This document shows, in pieces, positions 7,801 through 53,824 of a stretch of DNA of 64,000 nucleotides. This DNA comes from an uncultured Verrucomicrobiota bacterium. GTDB taxonomy: Bacteria; Verrucomicrobiota; Verrucomicrobiia; Limisphaerales; UBA8199. The stretch is from assembly GCA_964653485.1 (NCBI GenBank), contig CAZZFF010000019.1, forward strand, positions 1,219-65,218, written 5' to 3'. The notes under the pieces were generated by a model. The model was not told the origin of the DNA and made no database searches. It worked only from the letters and a program-made list of their open reading frames with translations. The position numbers were made by a program, and so were the translations under genes. Numbering within the stretch: position 1 is the stretch's first letter; each line of letters starts with the position of its first letter.

Positions 7801-8316
7801 CTCATGGCCGTGCTCGTCCAGCAGGTGATCGAGGCGGACTATGCCTTTGTGCTCCACACGGTCAACCCTTTCAGCAACCGCCCCGAAGAGCTTTACGTCG
7901 AGGTTGTCCAGGGCCTGGGCGAGACCCTCGTCGGAAACTATCCCGGCCGCGCCCTCAGCGCGGTCATTGACCGTAAATCCAAAACAATCACCCTCCTGAG
8001 CTATCCCGGCAAGAGCCTGGTCCTTCGGGGCGGCGGCCTTATCTTCCGCTCGGATTCCAATGGCGAAGACCTCGCCGGCTTCGCGGGCGCCGGACTCTAT
8101 GACAGCGTCCTGCTCCCGGCCCCCCAAAGCTCTCTGGCGGAGTACACAAACGACCCGCTGGTCTGGGATGAATCGTTCCGGCGCGACGCCTTGCTGCGGA
8201 TGGCCGAACTCGGCCTTGCCGTCGAAGCCGCGGTCGGCGCTGCGCAGGACATCGAGGGCGTCTTGAGCAAGGGAAATTACTTCATCGTCCAAACCCGGCC
8301 GCAAGTGGGATTATGA
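4855..8316 (+). CDS. Alpha-glucan water dikinase (plant GWD1/R1-like): 2x CBM45-like, phospho-His domain, PPDK-type nucleotide-binding domain
   Basis: LHWG...W..PP...P..T...QTPF twice; WLRYSTLRQLTWQRQYNTKPRELSHAQERLT; GQRIRDEIL...EEWHQKLHNNATPDD; DIVSHVAVRARN; VWASKWNDRA...MAVLVQQVIEADYAFVLHTVNP; FRSDSNGEDLAGFAGAGLYDS. These match plant GWD blocks as recalled. Confidence 0.92.
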   Translation: MTETIATRSGLALQVGKQATEKAIEIDLRLDGRRKCVLHWGLRQPGQDAWRLPPQTVWPAQTRAVGPALQTPFAPEDGHGSIRIRLPMPDACSSIDFVLFFPDQRAWDNNGGRNYRIEMPQAQQDGAPLDTALKEYAGQKKLLFQRVFDLEPSGRLAVFVTREEDRFVIMMLTDVPDLLLHWGIARYSSYEWFAPPASLQPPGTVLWEGHTAQTPFTVQDGLGRLRLEIPQADAPMGLQFVLKQAQANRWLRYRGGNFFIPVRIDYEQKSGISSPELTGIVDQIVRAEMGGGSWTLMHRFNLCHDLLDRVAGNGDGLALLFVWLRYSTLRQLTWQRQYNTKPRELSHAQERLTHKLAQFYSQDPPNRPVLRLLLSSVGPGGEGQRIRDEILNIMHRHHVKEVAGHFLEEWHQKLHNNATPDDIVLCEAYLEFLYSNGNLDRFYEKLLQGGVTRQRLESFERPIRSQPDFVPHLKDALIADFQQFLRILRSVHAGTDLETAINGARSQLDANTQDLLWRIWERRHGPTTLPDLAAEIAEARHRLGPRLAGGADARELLYLDLALEQFLRLMVERNLQNASGGDALVELIASLVQNRLLSTDDAELGACERFWQRLKEQPRFGADWSLRAKSAADRIGRVLSGLIDRTYQMLQPKAEWLGHAFHADAWVVTLFSEEVVRGSSLDFVLSMLLRHLEPVLRQAAHLGHWQIVSRGSGSGIVEVVDQLRAVQGKAFDRPRVVVAEHVSGDEEIPEAVTAVIAPDVTDIVSHVAVRARNAGLLFASCYDSETFNRLKGLQGRAVRVQVSPSGDVQVEETQEKLIKQAPAPTRWARTAKVRPRSSAWALGAADFEPSLTGGKARNLVRLDGKLPAWVGRPASIAVPFGVCERVFAAPPNRAVAERYQQLLRQLETEPALALPGLREVILKLKAPPELASALAQQAGSAGLAWPPDFQDAWLCIKRVWASKWNDRAFHSRRAQGLPHEDLLMAVLVQQVIEADYAFVLHTVNPFSNRPEELYVEVVQGLGETLVGNYPGRALSAVIDRKSKTITLLSYPGKSLVLRGGGLIFRSDSNGEDLAGFAGAGLYDSVLLPAPQSSLAEYTNDPLVWDESFRRDALLRMAELGLAVEAAVGAAQDIEGVLSKGNYFIVQTRPQVGL

Positions 8317-21808: not shown

Positions 21809-24297
21809 TCAGGGCCAGCGCAGACGGTAGAAGCGACTTGGATACTTTGCCCACTGGGGATCGCTGAAATAAAACAGGCCGCCAGTGAGGAGATTCGTGG
21901 TCATCGGAGACCAGACGGGGCTGGTGAGGCTCGTGCTCGCCTCCACAACGACGGTCATGCCACTGGCCCAGTTGACGTTGAACCCGAATTGATTGGATTT
22001 AACCCCGAAGGCGGCATCACCGGTTTGCACCCGGGGAGTCCACAGGACGGTTGGGAGGCCGGTGGAGTTGGTGCTCCATCCTGTCGTTCCGGGAAGGTAA
22101 TAGACGGTTGCGGTGTCGCCGGAGAACGCTTCAAAACCGATGGCGGGAGCGTTACCCAGGAAATAGACTCCCTCAAGACTTAGGCTGTGCCAAAGCGCAT
22201 AGTTGCCGATGTTTGTGACGCTGTTCGGGATCGTGAGGTTAATCAGGCTCGTGCCGTATCCGAACGCCAAAGCTCCGATGCTGGCGACCCCGGCAGGGAC
22301 CGTATAGGTTCCGGCTCTGCCTGCGGGGAACTGAATGAGCGTCCGTTGGCTCTTGTCGAACAGGACTCCGTCCAGACTGCTGTATGCCGGATTGAGGGCG
22401 TCCACCGTTATCGCGCCAAGGCTGGCGCAGTCGCTGAACGCCGCATAGCCGATGCTGGTGACGCCGCCGCCAATGGCGACGTTGGTCAAGCCGGCGCAGA
22501 GATAGAACGCCGAACCGCCGATGTTTGTGACGCTGTTCGGAATCGTGAGGTTAATCAGGCTCGCGGAGTATGCGAATGCCCAATCTCCGATGCTGGCGAC
22601 GCCGTCGGGAACCGCATAGCTTCCGGCTTCGCCCGCGGGGAATTGAATGAGCGTCCTTTGGCTCTTGTCGAACAGGATTCCGCCCAAACTGCTGTAAGCC
22701 GGATTGAGCGCATCCACGGTGATCGCGGCAAGGCGGGTGCAGTATCTGAACGCCCCATCCCCGATGCTGGTGACGCCGTCGCCGATGGTGACGCTGGTCA
22801 GGCTCGTGCAGGAATAGAACGCCATCTCGCCGATGTTCGTGACGCTGTTCGGAATGGCGACGCTGGTCAGGCCGGTGCCGTCGAACGCACCGTTCCCCAT
22901 GCTGGTGACGCCGTTCGGGATCGCGATGCTGGTCAGACGGGTGCCCTCGAATGCCCAGGCCCCAATGCTGCTGACATCGGCGCCGATCGTGACACTGCTC
23001 AGGAGGGTTCCAGCGAATGCCGAGTCACCAATGCTGGTGACGCCGTCTCCGATGAAGGCGTTGGTTAGGCTGGCGCAGGAAAAGAACACGGAACCTCCCA
23101 TGTTGGTCACGCTGTTCGGGATCGTGACGTTGGTCAGAGCCGTGCCCTGGAACGCAGCGTTGCCGATGCTGGTGACGCTGTTCGGAATCGCGATGCCGGT
23201 CAAAGCCGTCCCCTCGAACGCAGAGTTTCTGACGCTGGTGACGCCGGCGCCTATCGTGGCGCTGGTCAGCCTGGCGCACAGAAAGAACGCGGAGTTTCCG
23301 ATGGTAATGACGCTGTTGGGGATCGTGACGCTGGTCAGTCCCGTGGCCAGGAACGCCCCATCCCCGATGCTGGTGAGGCCGGCACCCATCGTGACATTGG
23401 TCAGGCTGGAGCATTCAGAAAACGCGGAGTCCCCAAGGCTGGTAACGCTGTCCGGAATCGTGACACTGTTCAAGCCGGCCCCCCGGAACGCTGAGTTTCC
23501 AATGCTGGTAACATTGGTGCCGATCGTGGCGCTGGTCAGGCTGGAGCAGCTCGAGAACGCAGAGTTTCCGATGTTGGTGGCACCGTTGGGGATCGTGATG
23601 CTGATTAGTCCGCTGCCCTCGAACGCCGAGTCCCCAATGCTCGTGACGCCGGCGCCTATCGTGAGGTTGGTCAGACTGACGCACTCGGAAAACGCAGAGT
23701 CCCCCAGGCTGGTGACGCTGTCCGGAATTCTGACGCCGGCCAGATTGGGGCAGAAGCCGAACGCAGAGTTTCCGATGTTGGTGACGGTGTTGGGGATCGT
23801 GACGTTGATTAGCCCGCTGCCCTCGAACGCCGAGTCCCCAATGCTAGTGACGCCGGCGCCTATCGTGACGTTGGTCAGGCTGGAGCACGCCGAAAAGGCA
23901 AAGTCCCCCAGGCTGGTGACGCTGTCCGGAATTCTGACGCCGGCCAGATTGTAGCAGAAGAAGAACGCAGAGTTTCCGATGTTGGTGACGCTGTTGGGGA
24001 TCGTGACGCTGGTCAAACTGGCGTCTCGGAACGCATTAGTACCGATGCTGGCGACCGGCAGGCCATTGAGCATGCTTGGGATGGAGACGGACCCGCCAGG
24101 ACCAGTGTATCCCGTGATCGTGATCGCGCCGTTGTTGGTCGTGTAATTGAATTGGGCTTGAGCCACCGCAGGCAGCGTCGCCAGCGACAGCAGCAGCAGG
24201 CTGGCGCCCCAGGCGGCCCTCAATCGCCTGGCTCCCGCCTTTGGGCAGTGTGAGCCCGCGGAGGGCGTTTTCGATACGATGCAGATTTCTGTTTTCA
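21809..24297 (-). CDS. BspA-type leucine-rich repeat (LRR_5) surface protein
   Basis: Many 22-23 aa LTSVTIPNSVTxIGxxAF repeats after signal ...LPAVAQA; start uncertain (24297 or 24370). Confidence 0.92.
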
Positions 24298-24565
24298 TGG
24301 GTCGCCGCCTTCTGAATTCCCAGACCCCTTCATTGTGTCTCTTATCATTCATAAGGAGCCCTTTGCTCATAGCTTAGTCGGAGCCGGAGCCGTGATTTAT
24401 TCAGGGCAGGCGGGTTTATTGAGGCGGTGCTGACCTGGGCGGCCGGCCCAGGCTTGCATGGGCCGCGCCGTCGGCGCTATGAAAAGGCTAGCGGTTCGCA
24501 AAACGTTCCGCGGTGGGCGCTGTCCAATCTCCGTGCGTGCGCATTCCCGAAAACAAATTCGCGTC

Positions 24566-25822: not shown

Positions 25823-25870
25823 GGGAGCACTTGCCGGTACTCATGGCGAGTACCACTGACCGCCACAGGC

Positions 25871-26827: not shown

Positions 26828-26831
26828 CGGC

Positions 26832-27704: not shown

Positions 27705-27742
27705 GAGCTACAGCATACACGATCCAGAGCTTAAACGACCGA

Positions 27743-28735: not shown

Positions 28736-28850
28736 CGCCGACGATGAACAACCGGGCGGGCTCCGCGGCCACCGCCCGCCGCTCTTCCACGCTCACCCGG
28801 GCGTCGGAGGCTCTGACTCTAGCTAAGCTCATGAAGCAACCCTATCCGCC

Positions 28851-30452: not shown

Positions 30453-30583
30453 AGGCTTGAGACCCGCGGCCCGCCTGCGCAGCGTATTACAGTTTGCTTC
30501 TCTTGGCGCATGAGACCAACGGCGGCACAGGCGAAAAGCCTGCCGCCCTTCGGAGATTGGCGAGATGGACACAATGACCACAA

Positions 30584-30624
30584 GATGCGTGATTTTCACG
30601 CGGAATGCGTGAAAATCACGCATC
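30584..30624. promoter_or_regulatory. Perfect 18-bp inverted repeat whose arms are each a palindrome GCGTGA-N3-TCACGC
   Basis: gatgcgtgattttcacgc-ggaat-gcgtgaaaatcacgcatc read directly; upstream of the LuxR-type gene. Confidence 0.7.
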
Positions 30625-30840
30625 CTCACAGCGGCAAGGATAAGGAACATGCGGATTTGCCGGGGTTTCGTGTTTGGCACCGGAAATGCTGGTGTTTCGC
30701 CGTTACCTCGGTTCGCTGCGGATTCATCTTTGATGAATCCCTGGCGCCCCTGTGTAAAGGCAGTGCAGTTTGGTCCTTTTGGAGCATGAACTCGACGGCG
30801 ACAGAGTCGAAGAGACGGCCCGAGGGCACGGGCCGCGCGC

Positions 30841-31611
30841 GTGTGTGGCAGGGTGGGATCCAGCGCTTCTGCGAGGGCTGGGGTTGTCGCGTCTGCACTC
30901 CGGATCCGGCGGCCGAGATGGGCCGCGTACCGCGGGGGGGGGGGGGAGGGCGTTGCTGTCGTTGGAGGCAACGCGAGGGTGCGGTCGGTGGTCCTCGAAG
31001 CGGTCGCACGGTTGCCCGGGTTCCAGAGCTGCACCCTCTTTGCAACGGGCGCGGAGGCTATCAGGCTCCTGCCGGGCCTGGAAGTGGAAATCGCCCTCGT
31101 CGCGCTGACTCTCCCGGACCTCTGCGGCATCAGGTGCGGCAGAGAGTTGCGCACCCGCAAACCCGGCCTCAAGGCCGTCCTGATCGTCTCAGCGGAGGAA
31201 TGTGCGCTCGCCGGCCATGCCATGGCAAGCGGCTTTGATTACTGCCTTGCGCACCCGTTCGACACGGGCCGCTGTGTGGAGACGCTCCTCTTCGTTTCGG
31301 CATGCCAAGCTCGCAGGCCTGGGACGTCACTGGGCCATCCAGGGCCATGCACCCGGTCCTTCGCCTCGTCCGGGCTGACGCGTGAGGAGGATCGGGTGAT
31401 GGCCTGCCTTGCTCAGGGTCGGTTCTACAAGGAAATCGAGGCTGACCTCGGGTTTAGCAGGGCGAAGGTGTGCCGCCTTGTGCATAGCTCGTACACCAAA
31501 CTCGGCGCTCAGAAGGCCACTGAAGCGGTGGAGAAGTGGCGGCGGTCCAGCTCGCCGCGCGCGAGCCAAGGCGCACTTGCAGCCGGAGGAGAAGGAGGAG
31601 GAGCACTTTGA
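30841..31611 (+). CDS. LuxR/NarL-type regulator with degenerate (pseudo-)receiver; 5' end crossed by a G13 tract
   Basis: [11 protein letters not shown] (acidic pair lost), [14 protein letters not shown] (phospho-Asp replaced by Ala), C-terminal [29 protein letters not shown]. Confidence 0.75.
30934..30946 (+). repeat. G13 homopolymer
   Basis: 13 consecutive G between c30933 and a30947. Confidence 0.95.
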
Positions 31612-32534
31612 CAACGCTGAGAAGAAGCGCATATCGCGGCGATCGAAGGGGTTTGCCTCCTGGCGCGGCCGCGCCAGGGGGCCGGAGCCGCCGCGCCGGC
31701 GGCGGCGCCGCTTGCCGTCCGTCCAGGCGCCGGGCGCCTGCGGAGGGCGGGCGGGCGGCGTTTACGCTTGTCGAGTTGCTTGTGGTGATCGCCATCATCG
31801 CCATTTTGGCCGCGCTCCTGCTGCCGGCCCTGGCCAGGGGGAAGGCCAAGGCCTACCGAGCGGTTTGCTCGAGCGACCTCTTGCAGATGGGCCAGGCGGC
31901 GAACATGTATGCCGCCGACAACCGCGATTTCATGGCCTGGCCAAATTGGCAGACCCTCGGCGCCGTTTCTCCGGAGCCTGACCCCTGCGGCCCGCCGGTC
32001 CATCCGATGGGCGGCTGGCTCTACACTCCCGGCGTCCCGCCCGACCCGACGGTCAGCCCGTACAGCGCCAACCCGATTGCCGCCTGGCAGCAGGGGCTTT
32101 GGTTTCCGTACCTGCGCACCCCGGGCGTTTATCTGTGCCCCGTGAGCCTGAGGAGCCAGTACTACGCCCAGCGTATCAACAAGCTGTGCGGTTACCTGAT
32201 GAACGGAGGGGTCTGCGCCTTTGGACAACTGTACTTGCAGAGGGCCCCCTCGCCCACGTGGAGGACGAGCGACATCTGGAGCCCGATGTGCTGGCTGTTG
32301 TGGGAGCCGGATGAGAGCCTGGGCCAGCCGCCGGTGGGCGGCTACGCTTATGCTGACGGCAGCGTTTATCCGGACCAGATGACCGCCCTGACCCGGAGTC
32401 ACGGCCCCGGTGCGGACATCCTCGCCTTGGCCGGCCACGTCCAGTTCGTCCACCTCAACCAGTTCGCCGCCGAACAAACTAACAGCGCCCGGGGGCTGCT
32501 CTGGTGGAATCCTGGAACAGCCAGCGGGCGCTGA
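31608..32534 (+). CDS. Prepilin-type N-terminal cleavage/methylation domain protein (pseudopilin-like)
   Basis: [35 protein letters not shown]; GGAGGAGGAG RBS and TTG 31608 overlapping the upstream TGA. Confidence 0.88.
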
Positions 32535-32548
32535 ACGAACACTCAACC

Positions 32549-34615
32549 ATGAAATCCCTCCTCTATGGCTCAGCCCTCCTGGCCCTCGCGTACCAGGCGT
32601 TAGCCCAGACCAACGATCCGCTTGACCAATGGCAGTCGTATGACCCGCTGCCGAGCAATTTCCTTGGCAGCGTTGCTTTTCTCAACGGGCAGTTTTGGGG
32701 TGTTGGCGATGGCACCGTCTGGGCATCCCAGGACGGCACTAACTGGGCTTGCTCCGGCCTCCTCCCGATGGACGGGCCTTTCGCGATCGCCTACGGGAAC
32801 GGCACCTACGTGGTCGTGGGGATCGTCCAGACTGTTGCCGGCATGAACTACTCGGGCGGGCTCATCGCGACATCCCCGGACGGTGCCGCCTGGACCGCCC
32901 AGCAGGGCCCCCTGGGCTACGCCATTGGGAATGGTCCGGCGGGTCTCTGGTTGCCCATCTTTAGTCCAGGCGCCAGCCCCATCGCTTTCGGGAACGGGGT
33001 CTTTGTCGTGTGGGTCGAACTCGAGGACGGCACTGTGGCTGTCCTGACCTCGCCCGACGGCATCCAGTGGGCCATTCACGAGTTCGGGGACACGGCCCTC
33101 GTAAAGGACATTACGTTCGGCAACGGCATTTTTGCGGCGCTGGCCAGCGACGCGAGTGGCAATTATCGTCTCATCACGTCCGCCGACGGAGTGCTCTGGA
33201 CGCCGCACCCTTCTCCAGTCGGCCCGGTGCCATGTTTGGGCTACGGGGGCGGTTCATTCATCGTCTTGGGCGGCGGGTCAACTGTAGATGCCGTCGCGAC
33301 CTCCACAAACTGCGCCGCCTGGACGACCAACACGGTTTCCTGGCCATTTCGTGATTCTCCCTGGGACGTCGCTTATGGAAACGGGCTGTTCGTCGCCGCG
33401 TGTTCGGGCGGCGGCGTCGCGGTATCGGCCAACGGCATCGCCTGGGCGGATTCCGGCTTCGCGGCGTTGAGCGACGTGATGGGTGTCTGCTATGGCAAGG
33501 GCGCGTTTGTCGCGGTCGGCCCCGGACCGCCGGCGGTGTCGACCGACGGCGTGAGGTGGGACCAACCGGCGCCGGTGGCTGACCTTTGGATCAACGGGGT
33601 CGTTTATGCTAGGGACAGGTTCGTCGCCGTTGGCTGCGAGGGCTTGTGGAGCCCTTACAACGGCGTCGGCGTCATTTTCGGCTCGGCCGATGGGATGCAC
33701 TGGAGCGTGGCCCACCCGGTCGTGGAGGGGCTGATGTCGGTCGCCTATGGGAACAGCCTTTTTGTGGCCGCCGGCGGCAGCAACGTCGTGACATCCGCCG
33801 ACGGCATCAGTTGGGCTCCTCAGGCCCTCGGCGGGGCGGCTTCCATCCAGAGCGTTGCCTACGGGGAGGGCCAGTTCGTCGCTGTCGGCGGGGCCATCCT
33901 CACCTCGACTGACGGCGTCCACTGGCTCCAGCGGAATCCAGGAACCAACGTGGGCCTCGCGCAAGTCGTCTATGGCAACGGCGCTTTTGTCGCGCTGCTT
34001 GACGCGCCAGGTGGGGCGGTGCTTGCCTCCCCGGACGGCGTGGCCTGGACGCTGCAGAGCTCCGGCACGACCGACCAGCTTCTGGGGCTGTGCTACGGAC
34101 AGGGCGTGTTTCTGGCTGTCGGCAACCAGACCGTCCTCACCTCCACCGATGGCGTTCATTGGTCCGCGCCGGGCTCGAGCCCCCCCTGGTCGGGCGAGGT
34201 GGTGGGACCCGCCTATGTACACGGGATGTTCGCCGTCTGCAGCGGTGGCGGCTTCTTCACATCGACCAACACCGTCGACTGGGTCCTCCACGACACGGGG
34301 TGCGGCTGCAGGCTCACCGGCTTGGCATTCGGCGGGGCCACCCTCGTTGGGGTGGGGGAGTCCGGCAGAGTTGTGCAATCTGGCACAATGACCTCGTGGC
34401 CCATGCGCCTCGCGCCGCTGCCGTGGCGGGGGACCGGTCCCTTTCAGATCACGGTCGCCGGGCCTGCTAATCACAACTGGGAAATAGACGCGTCCAGCGA
34501 CCTCTTTGGCTGGGCCCCGCTCGCAAATCTCTGGAGCACGAACGGCGTGATCACGCTCACCGATCCCGGGGCCCCGCATCAAGCCCGCCAGTTCTACAGG
34601 GGCGAGTGGTGGTGA
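32549..34615 (+). CDS. Secreted BNR/WD40-YVTN-like beta-propeller repeat protein, copy 1
   Basis: Signal MKSLLYGSALLALAYQALA; repeated VAYGNG.FVAVG...LTSPDG..W units; C-terminal ...DASSDL..W..L.N..STNG..TDP....FYR domain. Confidence 0.88.
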   Translation: MKSLLYGSALLALAYQALAQTNDPLDQWQSYDPLPSNFLGSVAFLNGQFWGVGDGTVWASQDGTNWACSGLLPMDGPFAIAYGNGTYVVVGIVQTVAGMNYSGGLIATSPDGAAWTAQQGPLGYAIGNGPAGLWLPIFSPGASPIAFGNGVFVVWVELEDGTVAVLTSPDGIQWAIHEFGDTALVKDITFGNGIFAALASDASGNYRLITSADGVLWTPHPSPVGPVPCLGYGGGSFIVLGGGSTVDAVATSTNCAAWTTNTVSWPFRDSPWDVAYGNGLFVAACSGGGVAVSANGIAWADSGFAALSDVMGVCYGKGAFVAVGPGPPAVSTDGVRWDQPAPVADLWINGVVYARDRFVAVGCEGLWSPYNGVGVIFGSADGMHWSVAHPVVEGLMSVAYGNSLFVAAGGSNVVTSADGISWAPQALGGAASIQSVAYGEGQFVAVGGAILTSTDGVHWLQRNPGTNVGLAQVVYGNGAFVALLDAPGGAVLASPDGVAWTLQSSGTTDQLLGLCYGQGVFLAVGNQTVLTSTDGVHWSAPGSSPPWSGEVVGPAYVHGMFAVCSGGGFFTSTNTVDWVLHDTGCGCRLTGLAFGGATLVGVGESGRVVQSGTMTSWPMRLAPLPWRGTGPFQITVAGPANHNWEIDASSDLFGWAPLANLWSTNGVITLTDPGAPHQARQFYRGEWW

Positions 34616-34757
34616 GCCGGAATCTGCACGCGACGGCTGGGACCCAGCCCTCTTGCCGCTCTCGGGCGCCAGACCGGCGGAGGGCAAGGCTGGAGCAACC
34701 GTTGCACAAGCATTTCGCGTGCCGCTTACGGTAACGGCTTGGGGAAGATTTCTTCTT

Positions 34758-34786
34758 TTGCAGCTTCTGCTGTGCGGCGCTACAAA
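34758..34786 (+). promoter_or_regulatory. Sigma70-like promoter, copy 1 (TTGCAG-17-TACAAA)
   Basis: Aligned with the better-matching copy at 37320-37348. Confidence 0.5.
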
Positions 34787-34917
34787 AGTGGCCGTTGCTT
34801 TGGTATCCAGGTCCGGGAGGCCTGATGCTTCGGGAGCCAAGTGGCAGCTTTGCCCTCGGAGGGCAGGCAGACGCGAGTGAACATGATCGCACGCGAACAG
34901 ATAACTTGAAACAAGCT

Positions 34918-34965
34918 ATGAAGACCTCGAACGAAACGGCCGGCGCTGAGGCATTCCCGCCCTAG
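34918..34965 (+). pseudogene. Truncated 5' stub of the Cys-rich protein gene (MKTSNETAGAEAFPP*)
   Basis: 14 of 15 residues identical to the N-terminus of 37480-38514, then TAG at the duplication junction. Confidence 0.85.
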
Positions 34966-35070
34966 CCAGCCACGTCCAATTCGTCCGCCTCAACCAGTTC
35001 GCCGCCGAACAAACTAACAGCGCCCGAGGCCTGCTCTGGTGGAATCCGGGAACAGCCACCGGGCGCTGAG
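34966..35070 (+). pseudogene. Orphan 3' end of a pseudopilin gene
   Basis: Encodes [32 protein letters not shown], matching the end of 31608-32534. Confidence 0.85.
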
Positions 35071-35083
35071 CAAGCACTCAACT

Positions 35084-37177
35084 ATGAAATCCCTTCTCTA
35101 CGCCGCGGCGCTCCTGGCCCTTGGGGGCCAGGTCCTTGGCCAGACCAACGATCCGCTTGACCATTGGCAGCGGTATGATCCTGCGCCGAGCAACTTCTTT
35201 TCCAGCGTTGGTTTTCTCAACGGGCAGTTTTGGGGCGTTGGCTGTGGTACTGTCTGGGGATCGCAGGACGGCACTAACTGGGCGTGCTCCGGTTTCGTCC
35301 CCATGGATGTACCCTTGGGCATCGCGTATGGGAACGGCACCTACGTGGTCGTGGGAGAGGACGGTTACGACCCCGAGCTTGACGGGACGGCAGGCCTTAT
35401 CACGACCTCGCCTGATGGAGTCGTCTGGACCGCTCAGTCTGGGCCGCCCGGGTACTCTGTCTTCGGTGGACCAGCAGGCTTTTGGTTTCCCGAGGCCGGT
35501 CCCGATGGCAACGCGGTCGTTTATGGCAACGGCTTGTTCGTCGTGGCGGTCACGCTGGAGGATAGCACTCCCGCCTTCCTGACGTCGCCGGACGGTGTCC
35601 AGTGGGCGATCCAGACCTTCGGAGACATCCACGCTATCTCGAGCCTTATCTTCGGCAATGGTCTGTTCGTAGCACTGGGCTATACGGGTGACTTCGGCGC
35701 CGGCGGCCAGAGCTTCCTGTTGACGTCCCAGGATGGGCAGCTTTGGACGAAGCACGCGGGCGGAACTGGGGGCTGGCTTGACTGGGTGGGCTACGGCAAC
35801 GGCACCTTCGTGCTTGGGAGCGGTTTAGGGCAGCTCCAGGCGGTCGCCGCATCAACCGACCTCCAAACGTGGACGACCAATGCGGCCCAGGGCACCGCCG
35901 GTTTCTACCCGGGTTCCATTGCCTATGGGGACGGAGTGTTCGTTGCCGCGGGCGGCGCGGGCGCCGTCTGGACTTCGCCGGACGGTCTTCAGTGGGCGAG
36001 CCACGACTCGGGCATATCCAATACCTTGTATTCCGTCGCCAACGGAAACGGGGTTTTCGTGGCCTCCTCGCGGTCGCCACCCGTCACGTCGAGCGATGGG
36101 GTCCACTGGACGGCGGCCAAGCCCGCGATCCCCGTAAGCATGTACGATGTCGTCTTTGCCCGAGGCCGGTTCGTGGCGGTCGGGCAGCAGACGGGCTCAT
36201 CAGCAGACTATCCCAGCCAGGGCGTAAGCATGACCTCGACGGACGGCGCCCACTGGAGCATCGCCTACACTGGGACCACGCAGTGCCTCAGTGTGGTTTA
36301 CGCTGATGGCCTTTTTGTAGCGGTGGGCGGCGACCAGGTTGTCACCTCGCCGGACGGGCTGAACTGGACCCCACGCGTCTCGGGCACTGCAAATTCCATC
36401 CAGAGCGTCGCTTACGGGAACGGCCTCTTGGTGGGGGTCGGCTGGAGTGGCACCGTCATCACCTCGACCAACGGCACCGACTGGATTTCGCGTAATCCGG
36501 CAACCAATGTTAGCATGATGCAGGTCGTTTACGGGAACGGCGTCTTCGTTGCGCTCTGGGAGAGCCAGGACGGCTCCATCCTCGTCTCGACCAACGGCGC
36601 GGACTGGCAGATCCGGGACTGCGGGGCAACCGATTGGGTCTGGGGACTGGGCTCCGGCGATGGGATGCTCTTCGTGGTGGGAAGACAGTCCCTTCTGGTG
36701 TCAACCAACGGGAGCGATTGGTTCACACTTGGATCCGGCATCTTCCCCTGGTATGACACCGGAAACCTTAAATACGCCCACGGGACCTTTCTCATCGTCT
36801 GCGGGTCGGGGGACATTTACGCCTCGACGAACGCGACGGACTGGGTGCTCCACAACACCGGTTGTGGCCAAGACCTATCTGGCTTGGCGTACGGCAACAA
36901 CACCTTCGTAGCGGTGGGAGAGGGTGGCACCATACTCCAGTCTGCCCCCACTCCTTCATGGCCTCTGCAACTTGCGCCTTCGGGTGTGCCCGGGCCAAAC
37001 GGATTTTCCCTCACCGCCTCCGGCCCCGCCGGGCACAACTGGGAGATTGACGCGTCCAGCGATCTCCTTGACTGGGCTCCGCTCGCAAATCTCTGGAGCA
37101 CGAACGGCGTGATCACGGTCACCGATCCGGCGGCCACAGCCTGCGCTCGCCGGTTCTATCATGGTCAGTGGTGGTGA
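35084..37177 (+). CDS. Secreted BNR/WD40-YVTN-like beta-propeller repeat protein, copy 2
   Basis: Paralogue of 32549-34615: same signal, repeats and C-terminal domain. Confidence 0.88.
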   Translation: MKSLLYAAALLALGGQVLGQTNDPLDHWQRYDPAPSNFFSSVGFLNGQFWGVGCGTVWGSQDGTNWACSGFVPMDVPLGIAYGNGTYVVVGEDGYDPELDGTAGLITTSPDGVVWTAQSGPPGYSVFGGPAGFWFPEAGPDGNAVVYGNGLFVVAVTLEDSTPAFLTSPDGVQWAIQTFGDIHAISSLIFGNGLFVALGYTGDFGAGGQSFLLTSQDGQLWTKHAGGTGGWLDWVGYGNGTFVLGSGLGQLQAVAASTDLQTWTTNAAQGTAGFYPGSIAYGDGVFVAAGGAGAVWTSPDGLQWASHDSGISNTLYSVANGNGVFVASSRSPPVTSSDGVHWTAAKPAIPVSMYDVVFARGRFVAVGQQTGSSADYPSQGVSMTSTDGAHWSIAYTGTTQCLSVVYADGLFVAVGGDQVVTSPDGLNWTPRVSGTANSIQSVAYGNGLLVGVGWSGTVITSTNGTDWISRNPATNVSMMQVVYGNGVFVALWESQDGSILVSTNGADWQIRDCGATDWVWGLGSGDGMLFVVGRQSLLVSTNGSDWFTLGSGIFPWYDTGNLKYAHGTFLIVCGSGDIYASTNATDWVLHNTGCGQDLSGLAYGNNTFVAVGEGGTILQSAPTPSWPLQLAPSGVPGPNGFSLTASGPAGHNWEIDASSDLLDWAPLANLWSTNGVITVTDPAATACARRFYHGQWW

Positions 37178-37319
37178 GCCGGACAGGTGCCGAGCGCCCC
37201 GCGCTAGCTCTGTTGTCGCTGTCTGCGGCGCCAAGCCGGCGCGGGGCAAGGCTGTAGCAAGTGCTGCACAAGCATCTCGCGTGCCGCATACGGTAACGGC
37301 TGGGGGAAGATTTCTTCCT

Positions 37320-37348
37320 TTGAAGCCTCTGCCGTGCGGCGCTATAAA
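37320..37348 (+). promoter_or_regulatory. Sigma70-like promoter of the Cys-rich gene (TTGAAG-17-TATAAA)
   Basis: Near-consensus hexamers with 17-nt spacer about 130 nt upstream of ATG 37480; conserved in the duplicated copy. Confidence 0.6.
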
Positions 37349-37479
37349 AGTGACCCTTGCCTCAGGATCCAGGCTCCGAAGGCCTGATGCTTGGGGAACC
37401 AATCGGCGACTTTGCCCTCGAAGGGCAGGGAGACGCGAGCGAGTATGATTGCACGCGAACAGATAACTTGAAGCAAACT

Positions 37480-38514
37480 ATGAAGACCTCGAACGAGACG
37501 GCCGGTGCCGAGCCATTTCCACCCTCAACCCGCCGGGATTTCCTCCAGAAGGTCACGAAGTCCGTCCTTGGCGGCGGGCTGCTTATCGGCGGTGTTGGCT
37601 TGCCGACGGCTGCGCTTGCAGGTGGTGGCTGCACGCACTGCGACACGACCCTTGACAGCACTTGCAACAACACGTACGCATGCACGAGTCTGAACGCTTG
37701 TGGCTCGAACCAATGCAACACCGCGGACGGATGCAGCGTCACCGATAGCTGCTTGTACAACAATACGTGCCAAGTGACCAACGCTTGCGGCGTCGACACG
37801 TGCGAGACCAACAACAATTGCCAAGCCCCCGGCGGCCTCTCGGGCAGCGACACATGCACGAGCAACGTATGCACTTCCTACGACCTTTGCTCCACTAACA
37901 CGTGCATCAACACCGACGCTTGCACCACCACCGGGGGCAGCCAGAACCAGTGCTACGAGCAGGACACTTGCGAGGCCAGCAACACCTGCGGCACAGATGT
38001 GTGCGGTGCGGTCAACTTCTGCACGTCCTGGAACAAATGCACCAGTGACGATGAATGTGTGAATTACAACCTGTGCAGCTCCTATAACTACTGCGTCAGC
38101 CGCGAGGTCGGCACACTCGGGTGCCAAACCGACACGTGCAAGGCGTCCAACTACTGCGGCGGGGACGACCCGTGCTCTACGAACTCCTGCGGAATCTCGA
38201 ATACCTGTGCGGACGATAGTTGCTTGGCATCAAACAACTGCGCTGGCATCAATGATTGCGGGGTTGATACCTGCTCTGGCGCCACCTACGGAAACTCGTG
38301 CTTCAGCGATGCCTGTCAGTCCAGCGATTCATGCATTGGCACGGCCGGCAACTCCTGCACCACGGACACGTGCGGGACGGACTCTTGCGGCCACTCGAAC
38401 ACCTGCATTTCCAGCGACCGGTGCATGACGCTGGACGATTGTATGTTTAACATCTGCGATTCCTTCAATATATGCAATGGGATCAACACGTGCTCGAGCA
38501 CTAACAGTCCATAA
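37480..38514 (+). CDS. Tat-signal, 48-Cys periodic repeat protein of unknown function
   Basis: STRRDFL Tat motif and AALA cleavage site; mature part has Cys every 5-6 residues, 43 of 48 preceded by N/D at -2. Confidence 0.9.
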   Translation: MKTSNETAGAEPFPPSTRRDFLQKVTKSVLGGGLLIGGVGLPTAALAGGGCTHCDTTLDSTCNNTYACTSLNACGSNQCNTADGCSVTDSCLYNNTCQVTNACGVDTCETNNNCQAPGGLSGSDTCTSNVCTSYDLCSTNTCINTDACTTTGGSQNQCYEQDTCEASNTCGTDVCGAVNFCTSWNKCTSDDECVNYNLCSSYNYCVSREVGTLGCQTDTCKASNYCGGDDPCSTNSCGISNTCADDSCLASNNCAGINDCGVDTCSGATYGNSCFSDACQSSDSCIGTAGNSCTTDTCGTDSCGHSNTCISSDRCMTLDDCMFNICDSFNICNGINTCSSTNSP

Positions 38515-38515
38515 C

Positions 38516-39520
38516 GCGGGTAGCCGCTACGGAGGAACTCCGCTCGCTGGTGATTGAGCAGCCCGAACTGCTGATCGCGCAAGGGACTGCCATTGGCGCA
38601 AAGGCTTTTGCGGTTGGCGTGCAGAGCGTAGTCGATTTCCTCCAACAAACGCCGGACCGTGTTCGGACAGACGCGCAAACCCAAGTGCGCCAGTTCGGAA
38701 CTGATGCTGCGTAACCGTTTGCCAGTCCACAAGCCGTGCTTGCCCATCGGATCCCCGGCGGTGTCCTCCCGCAACAAGGCTCGGAGCCGGCTCAAGATTT
38801 GGGGCGTTTTTTTTCCACAGCCGGTCGGCCGCTCCCCGGCTGCCGAACCCGCCCTCGCAGCACCTGGCCGCTGAGCAACTCGCGCTCCGCACGGGCGATG
38901 GTGTCCACATCCAGCCCGAAGCGCTCTGCCGTTCGTTGCTGACCTCCGTAGCCGCACTGCAAACTCTCCAAGCCGGCGTAAAGTCGCCGCTGCTTTTCGT
39001 CCAGCAAGCTATAGAACAGCGCTTTGGCCGCCGGCAGGTCGTCGCCCGCCTCTTGCTGGGCCTGCCGCTGGGCCCACTGCTCCTGTCGTCGCGCGCGATC
39101 CAGGGCACAATACAGATAACGGCCTTCCCACTCCCGCCGGAATAGCCGCCCGGCCTCCACCAACTGGCGCAGCGCATCCTTGGCCGCGACGTGAACCACT
39201 GCCTCCAGTTCCGGCACCTGATAGCCGGCGGCAGACTGTGTCACCAGCGCCTCCGCCGTGTTCAACAACGTGCCCCGCCGCGAGAAACGAACATCGCGGC
39301 AGGACCACAGCCCCAGCTCATCGTAGTGCGCGATGGAATCGAGCGTGAAATACGTGCCGCCATGGGAATAGCTGCTCCGGTAGCCCAAGGGCGAGAGCTT
39401 GCGCAAGACCGTATACGTGACGCAGGTGCCCAAGGCCTCTTTGAGTTCCGGCATGGTGGCGACTTTTTGGTCGTTTAAAAGGCCGACCAGCTTCTCAGCC
39501 GGATAGTGAACGACATTCAT
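38516..39520 (-). mobile_element. Truncated ISAzo13-family transposase (two frames joined at an A8 slippery run; DDE domain missing)
   Basis: LDEKQRRLYAGLE...GYGGQ...GRVRQPGSGRPAVEKK, then in the next frame LLREDTAGDPMG..LWT.K.LR.I..EL...G..V...TV.RLL...YAL.ANRK...RDQQF; A8 at 38807-38814; ends abruptly at FLRSGYP. Confidence 0.85.
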
Positions 39521-39733
39521 AATGTGAACATAACGCCTTCGCGTGGGTTGTCGAGCGTCATATTCACATTTTCGACCAAAAGCGCCTCTGTGGACAAATG
39601 CATCGGCAAATGCATCATTTGCTCAGGAACTACGGGTGTCCGGAAGGCACCGCCTCAATCCTCACCGAGAACAGGTTCTCGGCATCTTGTGCGTGTGCAG
39701 CCTTAGAATCGGAAGTTGTTTATGCACGAACCC

Positions 39734-41827
39734 TTAGGGCCAGCGCAAGCGATAGAAGCGGGTCGGATAATTTGTCCACTGTGGATCGCTCAAATAAGCA
39801 GAGCCGCTCGTGATGATGTTCGTGGCAATCGGAGTCCACAAAGGATTGGCAAGATTCGTGCAGGCGTCAACTGCGACGGTCATCCCGTTGGCCCAGTCGA
39901 TGGTGAAGCCGAATTGATTGCTCCGAACGCCGAAGCTGTCATTGCTGGCCTGCAGCCGGGGGAGCCACAGCGCGACCGGAACTCCGGTGCTGGCGGATAC
40001 GTCGTCCCAGCCCGTAGTCCCAGGCAGGTAATAGAGCGTCAAATCACTGTCCCCGTCGAACACATCCTCACCAAAGCTGGGGGCGCCACCCTGGAAATAG
40101 ACTGCCGGCAGCTTGGTGCAGAAACCGAACGCCTCTTCTCCGATGTGAATGACGCTGTTGGGGATCGTGTAGCTTCCGACCTCGCCTCCCGGGTATTCAA
40201 TGAGCGTGGTCAGGTTCTTGTTGAACAGCACCCCATTCAAACTGCTGTAAGCAGGATTGTTTGTATCCACCGTGATTGCCGCCAGACTAGGGCAGTCTTG
40301 GAACACAGCCGGTCCAATGTTGGTAACGCTTGCGGGTATCGTGATGACAGGCAGGTTGGCGCAGTCGAAAAACGCATAGTCCCCGATGTTCGCGACGCCG
40401 CTGCCGAGCGAGAGATTGGCCAGTTTGGCGCAGCCATTGAACGCCCAGGGGCCAATGCTGCCGACACTGTTGGGGATCGTGACGCTGGCCAGGCCGCATA
40501 CCGAGAACGCAAAGGCCCCGATGTTGGTAATGCCGTTGCCGAGCGTGGCATTCGTCAGGCCGGCGCAGCCAGCGAACACCCCCGCACCGATGCTGGTGAC
40601 GCTGTCAGGGATCGTGAGGCTGGTCAGGCCGGCGCAATCATCAAACGCCCAGTTCCCGATGCTGGTGACGCTGTCAGGGATCGTGACGCCGGTGAGGCCG
40701 GCGCAGCCATCAAACGCCCAGTTCCCGATGCCGATCACGGTGTTGGGGATCGTGTAGCTTCCAACCCTGCCTACGGAACATTGAATGAGCGTGGTCAGGT
40801 TCTTGTTGAACAACACCCCATCCAAACTGGCATAGGCAGGATTGTTTGTATCCACCGTGATTGCCGCCAGACTGGGGCAGCCAGCGAACGGACCGGATCC
40901 AATGTTGGTAACGCTGCCGGGGATGGCGATGCCATCCAGGCCCGAGCAACCGGAGAACGCACCATCTCCGATGCTGCCGAGGCTGTTGGGAAGCGTGATG
41001 CTGGTCAGCGTGGCGCATTCACTGAACGCATCGTCTCCGATGTTAATGACGCTGTTGGGGATCGTGTAGCTTCCGGCCTGGCCTGCCGGGTATTCAATGA
41101 GCGTGGTCAGGTTCTTGTTGAACAACACCCCATCCAAACTGGCATAGGCAGGATTGTTTGTATCCACCGTGATCGCCACCAGACCAGAGCACCCAACGAA
41201 CGGACTGGGTCCAATGTTGGTAACGCTTGCGGGTATCGTGATGCGAGTCAGGCCCAAGCAATCGGAGAACGCATCGTCTCCGATGTTTATGACGCTGTTG
41301 GGGATCGTGTAGCTTCCGACCCCGCTTCCCGGGTCTTCAATGAGTGTGGTCTGGTTCTTGTTGAACAACACCCCATTCAAACCGCTGTAAGCGGGATTGT
41401 TTGTATCCACCGTGATCGCCGCCAGACTGGGGCAGTCTTCGAACGCCTCGTTCCCGATGCTGGTGACGCTGGCGGGGATCGTGACGCCAGCCAGGCTGGG
41501 GCAGTAGGCGAAGGCCATGTCCCCGATGTTGGTAACGCCATTGGGAATCGTGACGCTAGTGAGGTTGTTCAAGCTGAAGAACGCCCCGTCCCCGACGCTG
41601 GTGACGGGCAGGCCAGCGACCACGCTGGGGATGGTCACCGCCCCACCAGAACCGGTGTATGCCGTGATGGTAATCGTGCCGTTGGTGACTGCGTAATCGA
41701 ATTGGGCTCGCACCACGGCAGGCAGCGCCAACATCAACAGCAGCGGTAGAATCCATGAAACGAAGACCCGACCCACAATAGCCATTTTGACGGCCAGAAT
41801 TCCGAGCACTGTCTTAGTTGTCTTCAT
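39734..41827 (-). CDS. BspA-type leucine-rich repeat surface protein, second paralogue
   Basis: LRR_5 repeats, signal ...LPAVVRA-QFDYAVTNG, same C-terminal domain as 21809-24297; start set at ATG 41827. Confidence 0.92.
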   Translation of the reverse strand: MKTTKTVLGILAVKMAIVGRVFVSWILPLLLMLALPAVVRAQFDYAVTNGTITITAYTGSGGAVTIPSVVAGLPVTSVGDGAFFSLNNLTSVTIPNGVTNIGDMAFAYCPSLAGVTIPASVTSIGNEAFEDCPSLAAITVDTNNPAYSGLNGVLFNKNQTTLIEDPGSGVGSYTIPNSVINIGDDAFSDCLGLTRITIPASVTNIGPSPFVGCSGLVAITVDTNNPAYASLDGVLFNKNLTTLIEYPAGQAGSYTIPNSVINIGDDAFSECATLTSITLPNSLGSIGDGAFSGCSGLDGIAIPGSVTNIGSGPFAGCPSLAAITVDTNNPAYASLDGVLFNKNLTTLIQCSVGRVGSYTIPNTVIGIGNWAFDGCAGLTGVTIPDSVTSIGNWAFDDCAGLTSLTIPDSVTSIGAGVFAGCAGLTNATLGNGITNIGAFAFSVCGLASVTIPNSVGSIGPWAFNGCAKLANLSLGSGVANIGDYAFFDCANLPVITIPASVTNIGPAVFQDCPSLAAITVDTNNPAYSSLNGVLFNKNLTTLIEYPGGEVGSYTIPNSVIHIGEEAFGFCTKLPAVYFQGGAPSFGEDVFDGDSDLTLYYLPGTTGWDDVSASTGVPVALWLPRLQASNDSFGVRSNQFGFTIDWANGMTVAVDACTNLANPLWTPIATNIITSGSAYLSDPQWTNYPTRFYRLRWP

Positions 41828-42131
41828 AGGTGTCCTAATTCTGTCGAGAAGCGGCATGTCAATATCCACTCCGGCGGGTCTCAAGCCTCACCGGCATGGG
41901 CAGCACTATCCCCGGCAACCACACAGACTCTTTTTGCAACATCCACCATTGTCAAAGTTTCTTTCCAAGGGTGCAAGCCAAATCCGCCCGCCCGAAACGT
42001 GCCCACAAGGCCCCGTTCTTTATCGGACCACGCTCTGGTAATCCGTCTCGTCGTCGGCTTTCACAACGACGCGGAGGTCGGAATTCGCGGCTTTCAATTG
42101 GCGCAGTTTGTCCTTGAGGGCGGAGCTTTTT

Positions 42132-52522: not shown

Positions 52523-53824
52523 TCAGAGCTTCGCCAGGCGCCCCCTCAATCCTTTGCTCACGGCCATAGGTATTTCTTCCGGAAAACCCTGCGGGAGTTC
52601 CTTCTCTGCCGCTGCGATAGCTTTATCCACGGAGTCAGCAACATCCTTGAGTGCATCCAGCGCTAGCGATTCCGGAAGACGGGCGCGTTTCACCGTTTGC
52701 ACGAAGTGTCGCCCTTCAATTTCATCAAGGCGGTAATGCCGGTTGTCCCCCACGAACATGGCCAACTTCATCTGCTTCCGCTCGATTTGGCGATGTTCCA
52801 AGCTGGGCTGAGCGGACAGAACATCGTATAAGGGAGTCAGGCGGAAACGTCCTCTTGGTCCCAGGAACAGGCTGAAGTTCTTGGCGTGTCCATCTGTCGC
52901 TCCAATCAACCAAAACAGAATCTGTGCTTTCAGGAAGGTCAGTTGGTCCTGCCGCGGGATATCTCCGCCCTTAAGCAGATCCAGAATGGCCACCACGCCC
53001 GGACCGTCCTGGCTCTGATACTTCTGACTGGGAGGCACCGAAAGCGCCTGGCAGCAATCCTCCTGCGGCAACCGAACCAATCGCCTGGAGGACATCCATT
53101 TCCGGTCGAATCGACTCACCACTAAGACCGTGCGGGGCCCGAATGTTGCGATCTCGGCGGTCGTGACGGGCAAACCGAACGCGCCCAGCAGCTTCAGGCA
53201 GTAAAACTCATTCTCCACGCTATTGGAGAGGTCCATGCCGTTGGGCAACGTCCCCATCTGTGTCTTGAGAATATGAGTGGTGGGAGTGGTGCCGTATGGT
53301 TTTATCCAATGATTGTCATGCCACGATAGCGCCGTCTTTTCCTGCGCGCCAGCCACGGAAATGCGGAACTCGGCCCTTCCGTCCAATCCCAGCGGGGTCT
53401 TGGGCAGGTTTTTCAAGAGCAACTCAATTCCTGTTTCGTCCATGACTTCTCCATCCAGGGGTGGAGCAGCCTTTGGCGGTTCCTCTCCTTCCGGCAGAAA
53501 TTGCAGAGCTCCCACACAATCGCGGCCGATTACGGACAGAAGGCTGTATGCGTCTGTTCCTCTTGCTCCCACTTTTTCTGCGACCATGCGGCGCAGGCTT
53601 TCCGAATCCGGCAGGAGGTTCTCGAAAACGGCTTGGACCGGCGCGCCTTTGAATGCATCTTCTCGCAGCGGAAGGGAAAGGGAGACCGGAATCGCATTCT
53701 CTCGATTTACCCAATTGGGATCATAACGAAAAGATATTACCCCCGACGGGTCCTTCACCAGAAGGCCGACGGCGTCGTTGGTCAGGAAAACTTGCAGTGG
53801 GGTGTTTTGGCGGTGGCGCGGCAT
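52523..53824 (-). CDS. hipA: HipA family Ser/Thr kinase toxin
   Basis: HipA N-terminal couple domain, RISVAGAQEKTAL, TTHILK, NEFYCL, RFDR, PQEDCCQAL, IGATDGHAKNFS, LTPLYDVLS. Confidence 0.95.
   Translation of the reverse strand: MPRHRQNTPLQVFLTNDAVGLLVKDPSGVISFRYDPNWVNRENAIPVSLSLPLREDAFKGAPVQAVFENLLPDSESLRRMVAEKVGARGTDAYSLLSVIGRDCVGALQFLPEGEEPPKAAPPLDGEVMDETGIELLLKNLPKTPLGLDGRAEFRISVAGAQEKTALSWHDNHWIKPYGTTPTTHILKTQMGTLPNGMDLSNSVENEFYCLKLLGAFGLPVTTAEIATFGPRTVLVVSRFDRKWMSSRRLVRLPQEDCCQALSVPPSQKYQSQDGPGVVAILDLLKGGDIPRQDQLTFLKAQILFWLIGATDGHAKNFSLFLGPRGRFRLTPLYDVLSAQPSLEHRQIERKQMKLAMFVGDNRHYRLDEIEGRHFVQTVKRARLPESLALDALKDVADSVDKAIAAAEKELPQGFPEEIPMAVSKGLRGRLAKL

Follow-up and report, generated by a model that had tools for sequence, protein, structure and literature searches.

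What does a cell make from a protein that carries 48 cysteines in a nearly regular array behind a signal for the twin-arginine translocation (Tat) pathway? Such a protein is encoded at positions 37480-38514 of a 64,000-nt stretch of contig CAZZFF010000019.1, from an uncultured Limisphaerales bacterium of the phylum Verrucomicrobiota; this whole stretch is referred to below as the window. An earlier note on the window had offered three products: a giant thioether-cross-linked chain made by a radical S-adenosylmethionine (SAM) enzyme before export, a disulfide-laddered beta-solenoid, or a metal-thiolate solenoid. Our analysis of the gene, its relatives and their gene neighbourhoods points to the first of these. 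We propose that the gene encodes the substrate protein, here called the precursor, of an undescribed Limisphaerales radical-SAM peptide-modification system, and that this protein would be cross-linked, perhaps glycosylated, and then exported by Tat. Judged from sequence comparisons, we put the probability of this interpretation at about 60%.

The precursor gene and its product

Long open reading frames (ORFs) occur in all frames of this window, which is 63% GC (for example at 37525-38127 on the minus strand), and the ORF could in principle be a product of chance or of reading in the wrong frame. The GC content at its third codon positions (0.765) and its codon preferences are like those of neighbouring housekeeping genes, its Tat signal scores above a curated cut-off, and at least 17 homologues keep the leader and the cysteine register at the protein level despite the absence of any tandem repeat at the DNA level in the gene. 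The homologues in effect refute the chance reading, whose probability is negligible, and ORF 37480-38514 is a real gene, ending in a TAA codon at 38512-38514. Because there is no DNA-level repeat, the periodicity must be kept at the protein level.

Residues 17-47 of the precursor match the Tat-signal profile TIGR01409 of NCBIfam with 18.0 bits, against a curated cut-off of 16.7. The segment STRRDFLQK fits the S/T-R-R-x-F-L-K consensus and is followed by the hydrophobic stretch VLGGGLLIGGVGLP and by A-L-A at residues 45-47. By these features the leader is a canonical Tat signal, and Tat-dependent export is predicted. The core that follows has 297 residues and contains every one of the 48 cysteines, as counted by script. 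The distance from one Cys to the next is six residues (C-x5-C) in 27 cases and five (C-x4-C) in 13, so that 40 of the 47 intervals fit one of the two spacings. Two residues before the Cys, at position -2, Asn occurs 24 times and Asp 19 times (43/48), although the two together make up only 21% of the core (binomial p ~3e-24). The description in the earlier note of a Tat-exported protein with 48 cysteines in an (N/D)-x-C register was confirmed.

The product resembled nothing that is catalogued in the collections searched. Pfam gave no match, NCBIfam gave nothing besides the Tat signal, a sequence search of the PDB gave no match even at E 10, the exact protein sequence was not on record in a sequence look-up, and we found no published description of the precursor family in the full-text literature. 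Promoter and terminator scans around the gene yielded nothing informative. In an AlphaFold prediction, made from a shallow alignment, the core had no predicted fold and no strands (mean pLDDT, the predicted local distance difference test score, 38.7; pTM, the predicted template-modelling score, 0.18), and the only confident region was a helix at residues 18-30 in the leader. A foldless prediction fits a chain that is shaped by modification, a weak argument given the shallow alignment.

The family and its cysteine register

An exhaustive HMMER scan of 1.84 billion representative sequences gave 17 representative relatives of the precursor, and further members of the family were present in metagenome-assembled genome (MAG) and metagenome loci fetched later. 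A word-indexed search of 5.8 billion proteins returned nothing with the single precursor sequence, whose repeats defeat the word filter, and three proteins only when the family profile was used. Pattern scans with the window protein alone recovered no relative from genome contigs or metagenome contigs. For scans with the leader, an alignment of 19 sequences was too diverse while one of 5 sequences worked. The relatives all come from Limisphaerales/Verrucomicrobiota or from unclassified environmental samples; one of them has a source annotation, as a Tat-signal protein of a Limisphaerales MAG. Weak profile matches in Bacteroidales (loci L059-L076) were rejected as family members, being Tat-signal ferredoxins that match the leader only.

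All 17 representatives have a leader of the form TRRDFLxKxTKxxIGGGxLIG ... AxA followed by Cys repeats. R18, R19, F21 and G32 are invariant across the family leaders and the GGG-LIG stretch is conserved. The (N/D)-x-C repeats are found in all but one relative, and the excess of Asn or Asp (Asx) at position -2 of Cys was significant by a binomial test in every member tested. The precursor of locus L015 has a core as long as that of the window, with 48 Cys, 40 of them with Asx at -2.

To which cysteine the Asx belongs is answered by units of different length. Among 418 inter-Cys units from 19 family members, Asx stands at -2 of the next Cys in 107/116 units of spacing 5, 29/35 of spacing 7 and 25/31 of spacing 9-12, while it stands at +4 of the previous Cys in only 7/116, 2/35 and 5/31, respectively. 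At spacing 6 both positions are the same residue, with 189/209 for each. Since the Asx is fixed to the downstream Cys whatever the length of the loop, the conserved unit is (N/D)-x-C, and C-x3-(N/D) is a by-product, mainly of 6-spaced units. The repeat unit had earlier been written as C-x3-(N/D)-x-C or C-x2-(N/D)-x-C and compared with the C-x3-D motif of PapB; its (N/D)-x-C half stood, whereas C-x3-(N/D) proved not to be the conserved anchor, as the 7-spaced units show. The usual unit in the family is (N/D)-(T/S)-C. Asn is about as frequent as Asp and accounts for 50% of the 6-spaced units at the Asx site. We also considered N-x-C as an N-glycosylation sequon and rejected it, as Asp occupies 41-59% of the sites.

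Gene neighbourhoods of the relatives

In every related locus with enough flanking sequence a radical SAM/SPASM gene adjoins the precursor; the earlier note had proposed to look for such genes near homologues of the window protein, and the outcome favours its main reading. The recurring order is [DUF6242-like, prepilin-type] - precursor - SPASM partner - radical SAM - GT4 (~600-650 aa) - GT4 (~390 aa), where GT4 denotes glycosyltransferase family 4. At locus L001 the genes for a SPASM-domain protein, a radical SAM enzyme and a GT4 lie 1.4-6.8 kb downstream of precursor P0002; the first of these genes has no Pfam match and is split in the assembly into ORFs of 101 and 415 aa. At loci L004-L006 precursor P0009 comes directly after the SPASM-domain, radical SAM and GT4 genes, and L004 shows overlaps of 4 nt between the partner and radical SAM genes and between the radical SAM and GT4 genes.

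We also started from the radical SAM enzyme. A pattern scan gave 13 close loci (57-100% identity, 2-4 copies per MAG) in MAGs of Verrucomicrobiota/Limisphaerales or in MAGs labelled only 'bacterium', which were annotated by local profile and BLAST searches. A precursor gene adjoins the enzyme in L009, L013, L014, L015, L017, L018, L019 and L029, and among the loci whose contig extends far enough only L020 lacks one. A second, independent scan of Joint Genome Institute (JGI) metagenomes, started from the leader, gave six loci (L091-L096); in each of them the partner gene is found downstream of the precursor at a distance of no more than ~2 kb, and the entire operon is present in L092. A radical SAM/SPASM maturase was thus located beside the precursor in L001, L004-L006, L013-L015, L017-L019 and L092, and L029 has a truncated radical SAM fragment only. 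Prepilin-type genes flank the precursor in most related loci (L002, L003, L004-L006, L013-L015, L019, L029 and L091-L096), and the DUF6242-like neighbour also occurs in L011, L012, L013, L015, L018, L091 and L092. The cluster is small and restricted to Limisphaerales, and its members are at present annotated only as 'hypothetical' or 'Tat signal domain protein'.

Some neighbouring arrangements differ. The MAG MFD03726.bin.2.4 (L019 and L029) has a run of three genes with the leader, and a prepilin-type gene stands before each of them; the second of the three is a stub of 57 aa that consists of the leader alone and ends in GVVSSVL. An unrelated second system lies 7 kb from the precursor at L004:12729-14941; it contains a TIGR04222 membrane protein with a tail of Gly and Cys only (GGCGGGCGGGGCGSGGCGGGGGCGGGGCGGCG), and the radical SAM/SPASM enzyme beside it has SbtM and the ACGX-system maturases as its best matches. 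Distant radical-SAM loci from Clostridium and a reindeer gut MAG (L030:12465-12665, L039:12422-12658 and L034:1646-2381) have other Cys-rich precursors, with C-x3-C repeats (CSGTCSNSCRGGCNAGC) or C-D/E-rich repeats, and thus show different precursor families beside related enzymes.

The enzymes of the cluster

The radical SAM/SPASM enzyme has 387-413 aa and contains both the CX3CX2C motif and a complete SPASM Cys motif; we refer to it as the active enzyme. Its best family match is PapB (NF047865), with scores of 237 and 232.5 bits where the cut-off is 340, and with an alignment that covers practically the whole profile (2-327 of 330). The nif11-type maturases follow with 212 bits, QhpD (TIGR03906) is third with 187 bits (cut-off 453), and the SCIFF maturases give 151 bits; the nif11-type and SCIFF scores are likewise below the curated cut-offs. 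Scores for the maturases of CXXX-repeat peptides (TIGR04115, 125 bits, cut-off 350), for CcpM (TIGR04068, 128 bits, cut-off 500) and for the Cys-every-fifth protein CefB (NF038107, 55 bits, cut-off 600) were lower. PapB and QhpD, which the earlier note had named, are therefore both among the best family matches of the enzyme, at scores under their cut-offs. The nearest solved structure is CteB (5WGG, 1e-30). As this alignment begins at residue 96 of CteB, the active enzyme has no recognition element (RRE) of the kind that binds the leaders of peptides that are ribosomally synthesized and modified post-translationally (RiPPs).

The partner protein has 415-570 aa and belongs to a family of ~31 clusters, all environmental or from Limisphaerales. 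Its sole sequence match is the SPASM domain TIGR04085. An AlphaFold model of the partner (mean pLDDT 84.9, pTM 0.85) consists of an N-terminal beta3-alpha3 domain (three strands plus helices), a six-fold alpha/beta barrel and a SPASM region. In a Foldseek comparison of this model with known structures the top match was full-length CteB (497 aligned columns, E 2.8e-11); TigE, anSME and SuiB came next. An hhalign comparison of the partner with the active enzyme, using 2-sequence profiles, was not significant, and in its place the kinship of the two proteins was shown by AlphaFold and Foldseek. The CX3CX2C motif is present in none of the 23 partner members compared (0/23), while CX2CX5C is kept in 23/23. 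By the model and these motifs the partner is a radical-SAM paralogue that is catalytically dead, but in which the RRE-like domain and the auxiliary-cluster site, the latter at least in part, have been retained. The active enzyme, on the other hand, has lost its RRE. An RRE-like fold is thus predicted in the cluster, on a separate protein.

Structural alternatives

A quite different product would be a beta-solenoid of the beetle-antifreeze type, folded after export and laddered by ordinary disulfides, with no involvement of a radical SAM enzyme. Cys at every fifth or sixth residue of a chain rich in Thr, Ser and Asn recalls the Tenebrio-type antifreeze beta-helix, with its Cys at about every sixth residue, and the even number of Cys in the window precursor also speaks for it. 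However, the number of Cys is odd in six or more full-length members of the family (23, 21, 17, 17, 17 and 17), the 5- and 6-residue spacings are mixed irregularly with no 12-residue TCT-type repeat, and there is neither sequence similarity to the antifreeze proteins nor a match in the PDB. The strandless AlphaFold model speaks in the same direction, a point weakened by the shallow alignment. Tat exports proteins that have folded in the reducing cytoplasm, which does not suit a disulfide ladder, and the tight linkage to a radical SAM/SPASM operon would have no place in such a scheme. We regard the solenoid as improbable.

We consider it more improbable still that the precursor is a metal-thiolate protein, metallothionein-like or a store of Fe-S clusters or metal, that takes up its load in the cytoplasm, chelates it by (D/N/H)-x-C pairs and is then carried out by Tat. 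Proteins loaded with cofactors are common cargo of Tat, Asp, His and Cys all serve as ligands of metals, and in ~8% of units the Asx site holds His. Yet the commonest residue at this site in 6-spaced units is Asn, a poor ligand, and the C-x-C and C-C motifs typical of metallothioneins are almost absent from the family. The conserved neighbours of the precursor are the radical SAM gene, its dead paralogue and the GT4 genes, and no metal transporter or chaperone gene is among them. Neither of the two solenoids suggested at the outset found support, in view of the low pLDDT of the core, the lack of a PDB match and the odd Cys counts.

Proposed maturation and export

We return to the radical-SAM interpretation, for which the following sequence of events is proposed. 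In the cytoplasm the dead paralogue would use its RRE-like N-terminal fold to bind the Tat-type leader and would offer the active radical SAM enzyme the long core. The active enzyme would abstract a hydrogen from the beta-carbon of Asn or Asp and join that carbon to the sulfur of a Cys, a step modelled on its closest characterised relatives PapB, QhpD and CteB and, by chemistry, on NxxcB. Up to ~40 small thioether rings could result. Two forms of ring are conceivable, Asx(i)-x-Cys(i+2) and the PapB-like Cys(i)-x3-Asx(i+4), and we favour the former because the Asx is anchored family-wide to the downstream Cys. The GT4 enzymes may add sugars. The cross-linked product would then leave by Tat, because Sec, as we propose, would be unable to pass a polycyclic chain, and signal peptidase would cut after A-x-A.

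There is precedent for the chemistry. PapB makes Cys-Asp beta-thioethers in repeated CX3D motifs and tolerates 0-6 spacer residues (PMC9413430, PMC12373016). NxxcB forms a beta-thioether between Cys and an upstream Asn, and Asp is accepted (PMC9389541). QhpD cross-links QhpC in the cytoplasm, and a dedicated exporter then moves QhpC to the periplasm (PMC7876137).

If the scheme is correct, radical-SAM thioether cross-linking extends from short peptides with at most about six links to secreted proteins with dozens of them, Tat would have a natural example of export of a covalently polycyclic product, and the work would be shared by two radical-SAM paralogues, one dead and leader-binding, the other active and lacking an RRE. 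The full form of this idea is a ribosomal natural product that is really a protein, of ~300 residues with ~40 thioether rings and possibly sugars, whose leader doubles as Tat signal and RRE handle and which would be the first Tat-exported radical-SAM-cross-linked product. To this more ambitious picture we commit ourselves only tentatively, and on balance lean slightly against it. PapB is already in use as a peptide-stapling tool, and a relative that acts on (N/D)-x-C with both Asn and Asp, possibly in a processive manner, would widen the stapling toolbox.

Comparison with known systems

The cluster can be likened to a ranthipeptide or QhpC system, yet by its scores it falls outside the PapB, QhpD, SCIFF, CXXX-repeat, CefB and CcpM families. 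CteB, a SCIFF maturase, is the nearest solved structure to the active enzyme and, by fold, also to the partner, in this case along the whole chain with the peptide-binding domain at the N-terminus included. In CteB the RRE, the active barrel and the SPASM domain are in a single polypeptide, whereas here they are split over two paralogues, one without CX3CX2C and the other without the RRE. SCIFF peptides have ~45 aa and six Cys.

A close likeness is to PapA/PapB of freyrasin, in the family match of the enzyme and in a core that is a run of Cys plus acidic or amide units, the 6-spaced C-x3-(N/D)-x-C including the CX3D spacing (PMC9413430, PMC12373016). It differs from that system in the sub-threshold score of the enzyme, in a core of ~300 aa with 48 Cys as compared with six motifs in PapA, in the equal use of Asn and Asp, and in a register of (N/D)-x-C rather than C-x3-D. 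The Tat-signal leader, the RRE-like fold on a separate, dead paralogue, the two GT4 genes and the host phylum Verrucomicrobiota also set it apart.

QhpC/QhpD offers a protein substrate, since QhpC receives Cys-Asp/Glu thioethers from a radical SAM/SPASM enzyme before export (PMC7876137). QhpC, however, has 3 links and is moved by an ABC exporter after leader removal, while the precursor has dozens of potential sites and a Tat signal, and no qhpA/B/E/F/G genes were found in L001, L004 or the window. NxxcA/NxxcB, a streptococcal radical-SAM RiPP (RaS-RiPP) system, shares the Asx upstream of Cys and the interchange of N and D (PMC9389541). NxxcA is a short peptide with a single motif of N-x-x-C spacing in place of repeated N-x-C, and its maturase is of a different lineage, NxxcB not being among the family matches listed for the active enzyme.

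Evidence against the proposal and the state of the window copy

Several observations weigh against the interpretation given above, some on the chemistry and others on the window copy itself. The type of cross-link and its partners are inferred from homology, and the active enzyme is under the curated cut-off of every named family, so its chemistry may differ. The tie between the GT4 enzymes and the precursor is one of gene adjacency only, and action on the precursor is something they may have. The His found at some Asx sites would also fit a role in structure or in the binding of metal. Nor can Asx be a universal requirement: locus L098 has the same partner/radical-SAM/GT4/GT4 cluster, and its Tat-leader precursor (L098:1-381) has C-Q-x-x and C-Q-G-S-G-A repeats with Gln after each Cys and no Asx register. 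The enzyme set thus goes with a second type of core, and what stays constant is this set together with a Tat leader and Cys repeats. The idea of a radical-SAM thioether product modified before Tat export therefore stood in part: the neighbourhoods, the register and the RRE-like fold favour it, and the enzyme scores, an anchor other than the C-x3-D of PapB, L098 and the want of a maturase in the window do not.

As to the window copy (Table 1), no maturase lies within the 64 kb; neither tblastn with the three enzymes nor Pfam on the 30 largest ORFs revealed a radical SAM gene. Where relatives carry the partner and maturase genes, the window has an ISAzo13-family insertion sequence (IS) whose homology ends 3 nt past the TAA of the precursor. 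It comprises an N-terminal ORF at 38792-39520 and a frameshifted continuation, does not contain a complete DDE_Tnp_ISAZ013 domain, and by this evidence is a remnant and not an active IS. The truncated IS and the lack of an adjacent maturase had been described before and were both found again. That the IS took the place of the maturase genes, as was guessed at the same time, agrees with the synteny with relatives: the window DUF6242-like genes at 32504-37177 match L001 7880-9841, just upstream of precursor P0002, and a single junction, at the position of the partner gene, cuts off both the IS and the native DNA, which fits a deletion that removed the maturase genes.

Table 1. Features of the window (positions in nt)
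Feature	Position	Strand	Evidence and remarks
Precursor gene	37480..38514	+	344 codons + TAA; Tat leader, then Cys-repeat core
Twin-arginine signal, likely RiPP-type leader	37480..37620	+	aa 1-47: STRRDFLQKVTKSVLGGGLLIGGVGLPTAALA
Core	37621..38511	+	aa 48-344; ~47 units C-x(2-3)-(N/D)-x, rich in T/S/G/N/D
DUF6242-like repeat protein	35039..37177	+	PF19755 at 4.6e-10; conserved upstream neighbour of the precursor in relatives
DUF6242-like paralogue, tandem duplicate	32504..34615	+	PF19755 at 2e-11
Prepilin-type N-terminal methylation motif protein	31536..32534	+	PF07963 N_methyl at 8.5e-06
ISAzo13-family transposase remnant, truncated and frameshifted	38517..39520	-	PF07592, 59 bits, profile positions 2-91 of 308
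HipA-family toxin kinase	52523..53824	-	HipA_C at 1.9e-49; lowest-GC stretch of the window (0.573)
BspA-type leucine-rich-repeat protein, large	21809..24370	-	
BspA-type leucine-rich-repeat protein, large	39734..41884	-	Directly beyond the IS remnant
Alpha-glucan water dikinase-domain protein	4855..8316	+	1153 aa; Ig_N_CWD1, GWD1_pHisD, PPDK_N

A sister strain, represented by two assemblies (GCA_052139615.1 and GCA_052915925.1; L089 and L090), has 92-96% nucleotide identity to window positions 24320-37642. The homology stops at nt 37642, just past the leader and the residues GGGCTHC. Beyond this break L089:10164-10288 and the corresponding part of L090 are unrelated, AT-richer DNA in which TTGACA...TATATGGTGATATTA resembles a promoter and a new ATG occurs, and both contigs end ~125 nt later. 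The sister strain also has a single DUF6242-like copy, of 697 aa, so the tandem duplication of ~2.5 kb just upstream of the window precursor is recent.

Frameshifts or an in-frame stop were found in the precursors of several relatives. L091:2105-3055 and L092:5117-6067 have a single in-frame stop at a non-Cys position; selenocysteine read-through was considered and rejected for these, as the stop is at an 'x' position and not at Cys. The precursors of L093:2917-3635 and of L094-L096 are frameshifted, and in L094-L096 the frameshifts are identical in three different metagenome samples, which speaks against sequencing errors. It is possible that decay of precursors is frequent or that recoding occurs. 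At L097:8001-9302 the partner gene stands alone beside a prepilin-type gene in a degraded locus, with no radical SAM gene, GT4 gene or detectable precursor. With its IS remnants, frameshifts and orphaned parts, the cluster system is clearly in flux.

Because the maturase genes are missing and a truncated ISAzo13 is in their place, the window copy is either modified in trans, by another copy of the cluster, or recently orphaned and decaying; it may never be modified, or not even be expressed. According to the second of these, an IS-associated deletion took the maturases, and the ORF is now unmodified, probably useless and becoming a pseudogene. This is compatible with the assignment to the family and differs only on whether the window copy still works. 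The abutting IS remnant, the absence of the maturase trio, the break in homology with the sister strain, the damaged precursors of L091-L096 and the partner-only locus L097 all agree with it. On the other side, the frame of 344 codons is intact, with its native stop, normal third-position GC content and a register of 43/48. Moreover, related genomes carry 2-4 clusters and spare precursor copies, which makes service in trans plausible, and our view of the source genome covers 64 kb. We therefore take decay of this copy as a substantial possibility, but the less probable outcome. The maturation scheme itself concerns the family as a whole and is the interpretation that we keep.

Other genes in the window

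The HipA-family gene may be part of an acquired toxin-antitoxin module. A 677-aa ORF at 39716-41749, on the strand opposite to the second of the two BspA-type genes, is most likely a GC-rich antisense artefact. The protein with alpha-glucan water dikinase domains has the architecture of a plant-type starch-phosphorylating enzyme, here in a Verrucomicrobial genome.

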